A DNA stretch of 64,000 nt from an uncultured Thermoplasmatales archaeon (lineage in GTDB: Archaea; Thermoplasmatota; E2; DHVEG-1). Below, piece by piece: positions 59,501 through 64,000 of this stretch (its first letter is position 1; every line of letters begins with the position of its first letter). The position numbers were made by a program. The stretch covers positions 50,989-114,988 of the forward strand of contig CAYZTD010000001.1 of the NCBI GenBank assembly GCA_964481275.1. Reading direction: 5' to 3'.

Positions 59501-62500
59501 TTTGTTAAATCATATAATGAGGTTGCTTGTCTTTTTGAGAATAGAGAGGTTTTAGAATTAGAATCACCAGTGAGAGAGGGTTATTATGAACTTTTTTCAA
59601 GTGATAAGAAAATAGTTGAGGTTACAAATGAACATCCTTTTTATGTGAAAAAATCTGATGGAAGTATATCTTGGTGTTCTATTGAACCTAGTGTTACTCA
59701 CAAGTATTATCCAAATCTTTATAAGGTTCAAAAATTGGAAATCGATGATAAAATATTTAATGAAAATGGAAACTGGGTTGAATTGACAGATTGGAATTAC
59801 GTAAAGGGCCCAATTCAAACTTTTAATTTAAAAAATATTGGAGAAACTCATACATTTTTTGCTGAAGGATTATTAGTACATAATAAAGAGATACCTACTT
59901 CACATTGTCTTGGTCCCTTAGATGATAGTAATGTTTGGTCTGATGATAATGATCTATATAATTTTCATGAAAATAGTATCTCATTTTCTGATGGTTTTTT
60001 TGGATTTATCCCATCTTATAGAAGGAATTGCTTAGATTCACCTCTATATACTTATAAAACCCTTTTTAGTACAAACAAAGATACTAATCAACCTACTATT
60101 TTTTATCTAGGGTATTCTGATTATATATCTAATTCTCATTTTACATTGTATGAAAATTATTTGGATCTAAAAGTTTTTTATAATTCTGGTGATGGTATCT
60201 CTCCTAGTTCTAGTATTACTATTAAACCTGATAAGTTATGTACTGAAAAATCTATTAGTTTTAGCTGGAAGGGATATGATGATACAACTGATTCAGAAGA
60301 TCTTGTCTATAAATATAGACTTGACCCTTATCAAACTAGCTGGCAACCAGGACAGGATTCATGGACATCTAGTACTAGTGTGACCTATAATGATCTTGCC
60401 TATGGTGATTATATTTTTAGAGTCCGAGCTCGTGATGAAGCTATGAATATCGAGACTTTTGAAAATATCGGTATAAATACTTATTCTTTTAGTATTGTTG
60501 AGTCTACACAAATCTTGAATGGATCTACCAATCCAGATGATTTTCCTATTGATAGTGATAGTGGACCAGTTTCTTTAGATGTCTATAATGATATTTCAGA
60601 TTTTTCACATATTGAACTATACAATGGTGATGATGTTGTCGGTGGTGTTTATGTTTTTGATTTTGTTCCTTTAAGTTGGGAGCTTTCTTCATCTTCAGGT
60701 ATATATAGTGTTTATATGGAAAACGATGCTATTTTTTCTTCTAGTGGTAATAATATTTATGTTATGACTAAAAAACCAGATGGTATCTATACAAATGATG
60801 GTAGTTTTATTTTTCATGTAGTACAGACTGTTGTTTCTTCTGATTCTGCTATTAGTTCTAGTGGCAGTGGTAGTTTATCTTTAGTTTCAAGACTTGTTGA
60901 GAATCGTGTTTTAGAAGATAGTGATATCGGTATGTTAAAGGTTCAGAATTTTGGTAAATTTTCTGATGTATGGAATGATTACTATTCAGAAGTTCATAGT
61001 TTTTCAAGTTCAGATGATGTTACATTGGTATGTTCTGATACTGAAAATCTTGTTTTAGTTTATTCTATCATTGAGTTAGATATGGAGAGTGGTTAATAAT
61101 CAATATATTTAAATAATTTAAATATATGATAGATATGTTATATAAAAGAGTGAGTGAGGAAATATGAAAGGGATGCAATATAAATATATTTTTAAAGAAA
61201 ATAAGGCTGTTTCTACTGTTGTTGGTGTCCTTCTAGTTCTTTCTCTTGTAATCACATCTGTAAGTACTATTCTACTTTTTGGTATTCCTTATATAGAGGA
61301 AAGGAATGCAAACCTAGAACATAGTAGCGTAAGTAATCAAATAGATATTGTTAGAAGTACACATAATGAGTTAGTTGATAGTAATCTGGGGTCTACTAAA
61401 GAGAATAATGTTGCTATTGAATCTGGGTCTCTTAGTTTAGCTGATACAGATGAGGATAGACTTGTAGTTATGTATGCTGATGATGGTTATAATTTTGATG
61501 TTTCTGGTCTTGGTGATGGAGATGACAATTTTATTTTAGAAATGATAGATGGAGAAATAACTGAAACAAAAATTCATTGGTATGGAACAAAAACACCTTA
61601 CAGCATGATTAAACCAACAGGTGTATCACCTATCGATGAATCAGAAGAGGCTGGTGTTTTTTATGATACTAACACATATGACTTTAGCAACTCTGACAAC
61701 AAGGCATATGGAACTGACCAAGGAGAATGGCTTTGTCCTTTAGATCCAGGTAATGATAATTATCAAGAATATGATGAAATTAAATATTCTAAAATCAGAA
61801 CCGAAGATAATTACAATATTTGGTATGGTGATTATGAAAAATATGTGAATTTATATTATCAATTTAAAATTGATGAAAATCCATCAAAGATTTATTCTAT
61901 TGTTTTTAATTGGAGTGGATATGATGATTTGATACATGGCGGAAATTTCAGTTTCCATATCTGGAATTTTACTAGTGATTCGTGGGAGGAAGAAAAAAGA
62001 ATTCCTGCTCCATATGAAAGTAAACAAAACTATTTTGTTCTTAAATCAATTGGGGGATATAATCCTGATCCTGATTTCACTGATCATTACATAGATGGTT
62101 CAGGGAATGTTATTTTTGGTTTATGTGGTTCAGAGGGAACTGATAAATCTGAAAGTATAACAGTTGAATATCCCTCTAATCCTGAGATTTTTTATAGAGG
62201 TAATAGTTATAATGTTCTTTGGTCTTCTAAAAATGTTACTGGTAATGTAAAAATTGAATTGATACAGTTATCGGATGAAGAATTAGAAAAATTTAAGATA
62301 GATGGAGGTGGAATAAGGGGTGAATCTACTAAAGTTCTATTTGCAAATACAGAAAACGATGGAGAAGAGTTATGGTATGTTGAACCAGAAGAGCATACTG
62401 GTTCTAATTTTATTATTAATGTTTCTAGTATAAATAATCAAAGTGTTTTTGATTATAGTGATAATGAATTTACGATAACTGACTTGGATACCGTACCAGG

Positions 62501-64000
62501 AGAAACTTGTAGTGATACGTGTTCTGGTTCTACTTGTGAGGGTACTTGTCCAGATGATTATACTTGTTTTAATCCTACTTGTTTTGGTGATACTTGTACA
62601 GATACTTGTAGGGATACTTGTGGTGATTTAACTTGTCTTGATACTTGTACAAATACTTGTTTTACTTGTAACGGTTGTATTGATGAAACCCTTCAAGATA
62701 CTTGCCCGGCAACACAATGTGCATGTTGTTTTCCTGAGGGTACTAAGATTAGTATGGCTGATGGTTCTTTAAAAAATATTGAGAATATTGTTGTTGGTGA
62801 TAGGGTTTTATCTTTTGATGTTGAAAATAATGTTTTTGTTGAGTCTGTTGTTTCTGATTTTATTGTTAAGGTTCGTGAGGGTGTTTATAGTATTAATGAT
62901 GGTATTATTATGCCTACTGATGATCATCCTTTTTATGTGAAGAAATCTGATGGTATTACTGCTTGGGCTTCTATTAATCCTGATAAATCTAAGGTTATGT
63001 ATAATGATAGGGATGCTGTCAGTTTGGAGGTTGGTGATAGTTTGTTTACTGGTGATAGTTGGGTTGATATTGAGTCTATTGTTTTTTGTCCAGGTGAACT
63101 TGTTACTTATACTTTTGCGGTTGATAGTGTTTTTCATGATTACTTTGCTAACGGTATTCTAGTTAGTAACTGCATTGGCTGTACAAGTGGTGAGACCTGT
63201 ATGACTTGTAGCGGTAATACTTGTGACTCTACTTGTACAGCTACTTGTAGTAATACTTGTGATTGCCCTAGTCCTAATTGTTGTTTTCCTGAGGGTACTA
63301 AGATTAGTATGGCTGATGGTTCTTTAAAAAATATTGAGAATATTGTTGTTGGTGATAGGGTTTTATCTTTTGATGTTGAAAATAATGTTTTTGTTGAGTC
63401 TGTTGTTTCTGATTTTATTGTTAAGGTTCGTGAGGGTGTTTATAGTATTAATGATGGTATTATTATGCCTACTGATGATCATCCTTTTTATGTGAAGAAA
63501 TCTGATGGTATTACTGCTTGGGCTTCTATTAATCCTGATAAATCTAAGGTTATGTATAATGATAGGGATGCTGTCAGTTTGGAGGTTGGTGATAGTTTGT
63601 TTACTGGTGATAGTTGGGTTGATATTGAGTCTATTGTTTTTTGTCCAGGTGAACTTGTTACTTATACTTTTGCGGTTGATAGTGTTTTTCATGATTACTT
63701 TGCTAACGGTATTCTAGTTAGTAATGGAGCTGCTGAAGGTTGTATAGTAACAGGCGGTGGTGAAGGTGGCCCTTCCCTGGCGACTGCTCCCTTGGATGAT
63801 TATGCTAAAGATCTTCTTTATGATACTGATTGGGGTATTTCTTTTTCCAATGGTTTTTATGGTGCTGCTCCTTCATATGATAATAATTGTTTGGATTCAC
63901 CTATATATAACTATAAAACTGTCTTAAGTATAAGTGGAAATATTAACCAACCTGATATATCCTTTTTAGGGGGGTCCAATTTTGATGATGTGTTAGAACA

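Follow-up and report, generated by a model that had tools for sequence, protein, structure and literature searches.

Here we report on two Hint domains encoded in tandem within a single gene, gene B, of an uncultured Thermoplasmatales archaeon. The gene lies in a stretch of 64,000 nucleotides (nt) from contig CAYZTD010000001.1 of assembly GCA_964481275.1 (positions 50,989 to 114,988 of the forward strand; hereafter the window, whose own numbering is used unless a relative is named). The DNA encoding the two domains is identical over 446 nt, and we consider it probable that two older Hint modules were recently homogenised over their full length by gene conversion. The exact identity is best explained as fairly ordinary concerted evolution. 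The features on which this reading turns, with amino acid (aa) positions counted in the gene B product, are as follows.

61164 to 64000, + strand: gene B, partial in the window (open reading frame (ORF) and translation; protein P0001; Pfam matches to DUF7289, to Hint in two stretches, and to Y_Y_Y)
62583 to 62723, + strand: linker 1, of the form (x-x-T-C)n, aa 474-520; contains a 12-nt periodic array
62724 to 63170, + strand: Hint copy 1, aa 521-669 (exact repeat, Pfam, Protein Data Bank (PDB) matches, AlphaFold2 (AF2) model, Foldseek, catalytic positions)
63171 to 63278, + strand: linker 2, aa 670-705, CIGCTSGETCMTCSGNTCDSTCTATCSNTCDCPSPN; single-copy, absent from the ortholog at the syntenic locus L002
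63279 to 63725, + strand: Hint copy 2, aa 706-854; same sequence as copy 1

Self-comparison of the window returned 62724-63169 and 63279-63724 as a repeat of 446 nt with 0 mismatches, and the maximal exact run has precisely these coordinates; chance cannot have produced it. Identity is lost abruptly on both sides, the 40 nt before and the 30 nt after the repeat matching at about chance level. The unit starts on the first base of the Cys(-1) codon and ends on the second base of the terminal Asn codon, which differs between the two copies (AAC versus AAT). Because the repeat spans the Cys(-1) codon to the Asn codon, aa 521-669 and aa 706-854 are identical 149-residue segments (CCFPEG...ILVSN). 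Both units lie in a single ORF that opens at 61164 and runs past the end of the window. The repeat period is 555 nt and only the 446-nt Hint module is duplicated; the 109-nt spacer (63170-63278) and the outer flanks are unrelated and lie outside the repeat. An exact search of the GTDB representative genomes with the Hint DNA found no match.

The original prediction, made by reading this same sequence, had described two identical 446-bp units that encode one Hint domain twice in a single ORF, each preceded by a Cys-rich linker. The computed comparison bears out the identity, translation and Pfam bear out the doubled domain, and the linkers are present as transcribed, but the 109-nt spacer does not belong to the repeat. 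As explanations it had offered very recent duplication, ongoing concerted evolution or an assembly artefact, and of the three the second has the strongest support. Had a simple tandem duplication happened so recently that 446 nt still show 0 differences, an identical spacer or flank would be expected beside the copies; none is seen, and we rule out this plain form of duplication, the spacer and both outer flanks being single-copy. Since neither spacer nor flank is duplicated, the identity must stem from an event restricted to the homologous module. We propose that one Hint was overwritten by its neighbour through intragenic gene conversion, that is, non-reciprocal homologous recombination, and that the conversion tract would have extended as far as homology allows, up to the borders of the domain. 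Copy number could shift by this process too, or by reciprocal exchange between the repeats, a 555-bp pop-out giving the single-Hint state found in the relative L002.

Repeats of bacterial surface proteins offer a precedent: conversion within a gene or between paralogs gives exact tracts that run to the limits of homology, and recombination alters copy number. Signs of the same behaviour are present at this locus beyond the Hint repeat itself.

57803 to 61096, + strand: gene A, adjacent paralog of gene B, 1097 aa; one HN-type Hint (59426-59884), two FN3-like repeats, and a C-terminal tract shared with gene B
58793 to 59362, + strand: internal conversion tract of gene A; 58793-59062 is identical to 59093-59362, 270 nt exact
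60704 to 60997, + strand: tract homogenised between genes A and B; gene A codons 968-1065 correspond to P0001 aa 1130-1227, 98 aa identical

In gene A, the last 30 nt of the two FN3-like repeats differ from one another and match the orthologous repeats r1 and r2 of L002 position for position; r1 and r2 themselves share only 70% identity in nt and 56% in aa. This 270-nt tract, 3.5 kb upstream of the Hint repeat, reads as textbook gene conversion. The 98-aa run shared by genes A and B has the appearance of inter-paralog homogenisation, given that the two genes are elsewhere 15-55% identical and that their L002 orthologs differ within it. At a second syntenic locus, L001, four Hints in two genes are 82-96% identical in nt, and the genes elsewhere are about 45% identical in aa. 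Among these Hints, 17 informative sites favour the grouping of A1 with B2 and of A2 with B1, 14 of the 17 being clustered in nt 99-144; outside nt 99-144, A2 stands apart from A1, B1 and B2, which hardly differ from one another. Such conflicting groupings cannot be explained by one tree and indicate mosaic Hints exchanged between the two genes. A further relative, P0020, has a 37-aa identical run within Hints that are 53% identical overall.

L002 and L001 are metagenome loci, L002 being the closer to the window and L001 the more distant. L002 has the same gene order, its Hint is 89% identical in nt and 82% in aa to those of the window, and its gene B ortholog carries one Hint, after which the sequence is orthologous to that following window copy 2. 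Linker 1 by itself aligns colinearly with the L002 linker over its full length, the landmarks GDLTC.DTC...TCPAT included, so that window and L002 differ by one clean 555-bp unit consisting of a Hint and linker 2. On the conversion reading, the single Hint of L002 would stem from recombination between repeats or from assembly collapse. At L001, 48% identical in aa overall, gene B has two Hints (94% identical in nt) and gene A has two. The original prediction had held that the paralog at 57803 has one Hint, as it does (of HN type and only 40% identical in aa to the gene B Hints), and that copy number varies between genes and strains, which the one Hint of the L002 ortholog and the two in each L001 gene confirm.

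Its further claim that tandem Hints are unusual did not hold. A full HMMER search of 1.84 billion representative proteins gave 3821 Hint relatives at E <=1e-3, and about 80 of the best 150 show two or more matched stretches. At least two full Hints are present in 54 of the 144 close relatives that carry a full-length Hint, with two at L045, three at L046, two at L047 and nine at L048. Carrying several Hints is an old and common arrangement among these proteins. Copies within one protein are mostly 30-60% identical; a pair at 80% identity or more occurs in only 5 of 57 multi-Hint proteins, and the window protein stands alone at 100%. Tandem Hints are thus normal for the subfamily, and exact identity is the unusual part. 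The nine-Hint protein (L048 150-8930, from the Thermoplasmata metagenome-assembled genome (MAG) AUK212) is 2927 aa long and has DUF11, rhodanese, thioredoxin and subtilase domains ahead of its Hints, which stand back-to-back with 1-5 joining residues; most of its junctions read HN/T..C (the slash marking the end of the Hint), so that the +1 residue is Thr. Carriers of the window's Hint type include C25 peptidases, a subtilase protein and pilin-like proteins. Two cases inside C25 peptidases are L006 2223-5903 and L009 1282-4962; the L006 Hint sits between propeptide and catalytic domain, a placement that hints at Hint-driven zymogen processing.

The Cys-rich linkers vary in length between orthologs upstream of the Hint. 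Linker 1 contains a periodic array at 62589-62660 (12 nt x 5.8 copies), the L002 linker one at 13691-13825 (27 nt x 5 copies, 95% identity), and the L001 linker upstream of the Hint (9840-9916) is a minisatellite too. Between window and L002, the ratio of nonsynonymous to synonymous substitution rates (dN/dS) is 0.75 in the linker, 0.55 in the Hint and 0.27 in the N-terminal domain. Judged from these alignments, the linkers behave as fast-changing minisatellite-like spacers, with metal binding a possible, putative role. Linker 2, modelled by AF2 with a predicted local distance difference test score (pLDDT) of 35-39, resembles linker 1 (91% over 32 nt) and the end of the L002 linker (81% over 57 nt) only in low-complexity sequence, and the inter-Hint linker of L001 gene A, also Cys-rich, is weakly like it (TCTATC...; E 7e-4 in a small database).

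Both Hint copies score above the Pfam cut-offs, with two stretches each for PT-HINT (4.6e-15), Hom_end_hint (3.3e-14) and Hint (1.3e-12), the Hom_end_hint match being limited to the N-terminal motif of the Hint (profile positions 1-31). The best PDB sequence matches are bacterial intein-like (BIL) domains, 2LWY from Clostridium (2e-6) and then BIL2 6Y75 from Tetrahymena. An AF2 model of aa 505-875 has a pLDDT >90 for both Hints, and Foldseek comparison of it with the PDB gave target template modelling scores of 0.82-0.84 for BIL2 6Y75 (E 2e-11) and 0.82 for BIL 2LWY, with lower values for mini-inteins (0.6-0.78) and Hedgehog (0.56-0.65). The module is 148 aa long, the size of a mini-intein, and has no homing endonuclease domain (no LAGLIDADG, no HNH).

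Residue counts were taken over a family set (P0015-P0161) of 224 Hints, of which 223 were aligned at the catalytic positions. Conserved in the alignment are Cys1 (219), Thr64 (206), His67 (221) and Asn148 (179), and both window copies have Cys1, the block-B TxxH (Thr64 and His67) and the terminal Asn. Their penultimate residue is Ser; the family shows SN in 22 of 224 and HN in 153 of 224. The +1 residue is Cys670 after copy 1 (Asn669), which makes this copy splice-competent on paper, Cys1, TxxH, Asn and +1 Cys all being there, and Gly855 after copy 2, which has no side-chain nucleophile. Across the family the +1 residue is Lys in 99 Hints and Cys, Ser or Thr in only 24, leaving 200 without a +1 nucleophile, and the -1 residue is Cys in 91; many family arrays show the junction HN/KC/C. 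BIL domains are Hints without a +1 nucleophile that give mainly cleavage products, and they reside in hypervariable regions of secreted, non-conserved proteins (PMC7664689; PMC7765530). The rarity of Cys, Ser or Thr at +1 across the family fits this published definition. On the features tested (fold, Cys1, TxxH, Asn, variable secreted host), the window Hints would largely qualify as BIL-type, although only copy 2 lacks the +1 nucleophile, and both copies end in Ser-Asn where A-type BIL domains have His-Asn.

The SN-type cassettes (window 62724-63170 and 63279-63725; L002 13922-14368; L001 10222-11154 together with the L001 gene A Hints) also differ from their surroundings at synonymous sites. 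Over the three genomes, T at third codon positions (T3) is 0.74-0.81 and A at third positions (A3) 0.04-0.07 in the cassettes, against T3 0.55-0.59 and A3 0.21-0.34 in flanks of the same genes. Synonymous divergence (dS) between window and L002 is 0.19 in the Hint cassette and 0.46-0.48 in the flanks. The island and its low dS could result from cassette movement, from frequent population-wide conversion, or from selection on the nucleotide sequence. An antisense ORF of 109 aa lies within each Hint (62808-63137 and 63363-63692, both on the - strand). Antisense stops are few because antisense codon position 1 complements the T-rich sense position 3, and we reject these ORFs as genes, a by-product of the extreme T3 bias being most likely.

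Several points weigh against homogenisation of older Hints. The closest relative, L002, has one Hint in its ortholog although the Hint itself is 89% identical in nt, and if only window and L002 are counted, a recent gain and a loss in L002 are equally parsimonious; L001 could have acquired its double Hints through duplications of its own, and the homology between linker 2 and the inter-Hint linker of L001 gene A is weak and of low complexity. No unconverted remnant is found within the Hints, unlike the FN3-like repeats of gene A, the identity spanning the whole module, and assembly (bubble popping, or consensus over a repeat longer than a read) could overstate exact identity. At the protein level, the penultimate residue is Ser in place of the usual His, the C-terminal cargo is modelled at a pLDDT of 28, and the processing steps are predicted. 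We find it rather unlikely that the window lineage gained its second Hint recently, starting from a one-Hint, L002-like ancestor, by a complex duplication that brought in or created a new 109-nt spacer; replicative template switching, or unequal exchange with some other member of the family, would be examples of such an event. Such a gain would account for the one Hint of L002, whose flanks are colinear with linker 1 and with the sequence after the second Hint, and for the 0 differences in 446 nt; it would also suit cassettes that move between contexts (C25 peptidases, a subtilase protein, pilin-like proteins), are shared between the L001 genes and have their own codon signature (T3 0.74-0.81 for the SN cassette versus 0.55-0.59). 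A duplication in one step predicts, however, a spacer equal to the adjacent flank, which is not what is seen; neither the window nor any fetched locus yielded a donor of linker 2; two events are needed versus one for loss by repeat recombination; and more distant relatives already have at least two Hints, some with Cys-rich inter-Hint linkers. A variant in which Hint 1 was pasted into a once-continuous linker, linker 2 being its ancestral 3' end, is ruled out, linker 1 alone spanning the whole L002 linker.

An assembly artefact strikes us as improbable; the real copy number would then be one or above two, or the two copies would be similar without being identical, a short-read assembler having run through a repeat loop or merged variants. 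An exact repeat of 446 nt does exceed typical short reads, the loop from Hint through linker 2 back to Hint sets a minimum and not the true number of passes, bubble popping may erase small differences, and the single-Hint contig of L002 may itself be collapsed. Yet linker 2 has Hint sequence on either side, and a genome with linker 2 must therefore have two Hints or more; the arrangement is perfectly in frame and domain-exact; independent assemblies of relatives show two differing Hints (L001, 94%) and up to nine; and the same contig holds the in-frame gene A tract with its position-specific ends, which assemblers do not create from 70%-identical repeats. We give equally little credence to the view that the Hint is a selfish, intein-like mobile cassette copied to a second site, with both copies splicing out and their identity lacking functional meaning. 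The complete splicing set of copy 1 (Cys1, TxxH, Asn and +1 Cys), the coincidence of identity borders with domain borders, the compositional island and the presence of the Hint in unrelated secreted proteins would all be in keeping with it. The 148-aa module has no homing endonuclease domain, however, the +1 nucleophile is missing in copy 2 and in 200 of the 224 family Hints, the sites occupied are variable linkers of non-conserved surface proteins and not conserved sites of essential proteins, and a mechanism for precise DNA insertion is not evident. Homogenisation of two older modules by gene conversion is the reading we carry forward.

The full gene B product, P0001, is 1259 aa long, starts MKGMQYKYIF... 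and is 100% identical to the window translation over the 945 aa encoded there. Two regions of it flank the linkers and Hints at a distance or directly.

61203 to 61292, + strand: putative class III (prepilin-like) signal and hydrophobic N-terminal helix, aa 14-43, ..KENKA/VSTVVGVLLVLSLVITSVSTILLF..
63726 to 64000, + strand: start of the conserved C-terminal region of gene B, GAAEGCIVTGGGEGG...; orthologous to the sequence right after the single L002 Hint

Archaeal class III signals have a short charged N-terminus, a cleavage motif [KR]-[GA]/x-S (here and below the slash marks the cut) and then a hydrophobic helix of about 20 residues. Judged by eye, the gene B N-terminus, KENKA/VSTVVGVLLVLSLVI, fits the class III cleavage motif, and we take the cut to fall after KENKA on the established pattern of archaeal class III signal peptides. 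The N-terminus matches DUF7289 at 28.7 bits against a cut-off of 27, and Pilin_N PF07790 over profile positions 1-30 below the cut-off (E 0.029). We read the N-terminus as a putative class III (prepilin-like) signal and the product as a large pilin-like protein of the archaeal surface. The region of about 400 aa after the second Hint is kept in paralogs and orthologs and has a Y_Y_Y, Ig-like match; an AF2 model of it from a 4-sequence alignment has a mean pLDDT of 28.

Archaeal Rad50 and GyrB are among the other products of the window. Genomes with the nearest relatives of P0001 are Thermoplasmata MAGs, and those with more distant ones are MAGs of Methanosarcinales, Pacearchaeota and Woesearchaeota. 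Gene B closes a run of secreted protease genes (S8, C14, C25), with a conserved gene for a 262-aa membrane protein and the paralogous gene A upstream of it. Same-strand genes with signal-peptide-like N-termini and S8, C14 and C25 protease domains occupy 35814-57717, with a T3 of 0.46-0.64 against 0.34 in gyrB and rad50. One of the peptidases, a C25 (gingipain-like) enzyme, is encoded by two ORFs, 53513-54886 with the propeptide and N-terminal half and 54959-56794 with the C-terminal half and Ig-like domains, where L002 has one 1092-aa gene; a frameshift or stop, decay to a pseudogene or faulty sequencing could each account for the split. Directly 3' of gene B in L001 are small genes (12487-12996 and 13012-13086) with pilin-like N-termini (MKIINNNKAVSQIVGFIISFLII...; DUF7266 E 9e-4), and these neighbours suggest a type IV pilus-like gene cluster of which genes A and B are part. 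A scan for bacterial-type promoters and terminators, whose model is not applicable to archaea, showed no enrichment.

Among known systems, the window Hints resemble bacterial BIL domains (2003; Dassa et al. 2004; 2LWY, Clostridium thermocellum) in the HINT fold, Cys1, TxxH and C-terminal Asn, in usually having no +1 nucleophile, in a size of about 140-150 aa without endonuclease, and in their place in variable regions of secreted or surface proteins. They depart from them in an archaeal host, a carrier with a putative archaeal class III (pilin-like) signal, a penultimate Ser and not His in the window sub-clade, the +1 Cys of copy 1, and a family preference for +1 Lys (99/224) with tandem arrays of up to nine. 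The best structural match and second-best PDB sequence match is BIL2 of Tetrahymena thermophila BUBL1 (6Y75/6TMM), in which BIL domains repeat along one polyprotein and alternate with small modules, as here; the BUBL1 modules are ubiquitin-like and serve Zn-activated conjugation to Lys (PMC8616854), whereas the window spacers are Cys-rich and of low complexity. Canonical mini-inteins share the fold and catalytic residues, and copy 1 has their full set from Cys1 to Asn followed by Cys. Unlike mini-inteins, the window Hints do not occupy a conserved site of an essential housekeeping protein, and copy 2 and most relatives lack a +1 nucleophile. A canonical intein would sit in frame at a conserved site of a conserved host, have a colinear intein-less allele, and carry a homing endonuclease or show signs of homing. 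We reject a canonical intein on the grounds of a fast-evolving surface host, Hints set in low-complexity linkers, an L002 ortholog that keeps one Hint, and no endonuclease.

Pretoxin-HINT (PF07591) is the best-scoring Pfam model for the window Hints, and in pretoxin-HINT proteins and Neisseria MafB BIL proteins, as here, the Hint lies between a constant N-terminal secreted part and a C-terminal module. For MafB, the exchange of cassettes has been proposed to use BIL-coding DNA as its recombination substrate (PMC4287609). A polymorphic toxin is rejected, the downstream part giving only the Y_Y_Y or Ig-like match, with no toxin domain or immunity gene recognised; unlike such toxins, gene B has a C-terminal part conserved between paralogs and orthologs, and the L001 genes downstream encode small pilin-like proteins. 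The concerted evolution also differs from that of bacterial surface repeats in its unit, which here is a catalytic self-processing domain, so that two identical enzymes stand in different junction contexts. Open-access text on Hint with class III signals, on Hint with pilin and archaea, and on DUF7289 yielded nothing relevant, and within that text we found no paper describing an archaeal pilin-like tandem-Hint setting with a +1 Lys preference. What sets the window Hints apart from known BIL domains is their archaeal pilin-like setting, the tandem arrays and their family's preference for Lys at +1.

We propose that gene B encodes an extracellular protein in which an N-terminal surface or stalk part is followed by two BIL-type modules, and these by a conserved C-terminal part. 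After export, each Hint would undergo an N-to-S acyl shift to a thioester at Cys1, and its terminal Asn would cyclise. Copy 1, with its +1 Cys, may excise itself by canonical splicing and join linker 1 to linker 2. Copy 2, with +1 Gly, may cleave its junctions in BIL-like fashion or ligate through the freed alpha-amine, a reaction shown for bacterial BIL domains (Dassa 2004; Aranko 2013, as cited in PMC7664689 and PMC7765530). The pilin-like N-terminal part and the C-terminal domain would then be either separated or re-joined. BIL-coding DNA has in addition been proposed to aid rearrangement or antigenic variation (PMC3403396; PMC4287609). By analogy with these proposals for bacterial BIL domains and Neisseria mafB cassettes, Hint cassette DNA may act as a portable homology block, promoting rearrangement among variable surface-protein genes.

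As a long shot, the tandem Hints and their (x-x-T-C)n spacers might form an ATP-independent extracellular ligation device, in which each Hint makes a thioester at the end of the pilin-like fragment and passes it to an amine or thiol on another molecule. The acceptor could then be a Lys of a partner protein, as in the 'dispensing platform' of Tetrahymena BUBL, a lipid or the surface of a host cell, and the poly-Cys spacer could serve as a Zn switch or thioester relay. If this were true, the +1 Lys preference and the arrays of up to nine would amount to multi-shot covalent attachment and not to simple maturation.

The finding opens no new class of system, and it carries a warning that MAG assemblies can mis-state copy number in genes of this kind. 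Descriptions of BIL and Hint domains come mainly from bacteria and show them as single autoprocessing modules of variable secreted proteins; here they belong to archaeal surface proteins of pilin-like and protease type and often stand 2 to 9 in a row. With three distinct homogenised tracts inside 6 kb, mosaic Hints that neighbouring genes of a relative have exchanged, and close relatives that differ by exactly one unit, the locus gives an unusually clean view of how such arrays evolve. Gene B is also a natural experiment in which identical catalytic domains share one polypeptide, one followed by +1 Cys and the other by +1 Gly, exposing the effects of extein context on splicing versus cleavage.

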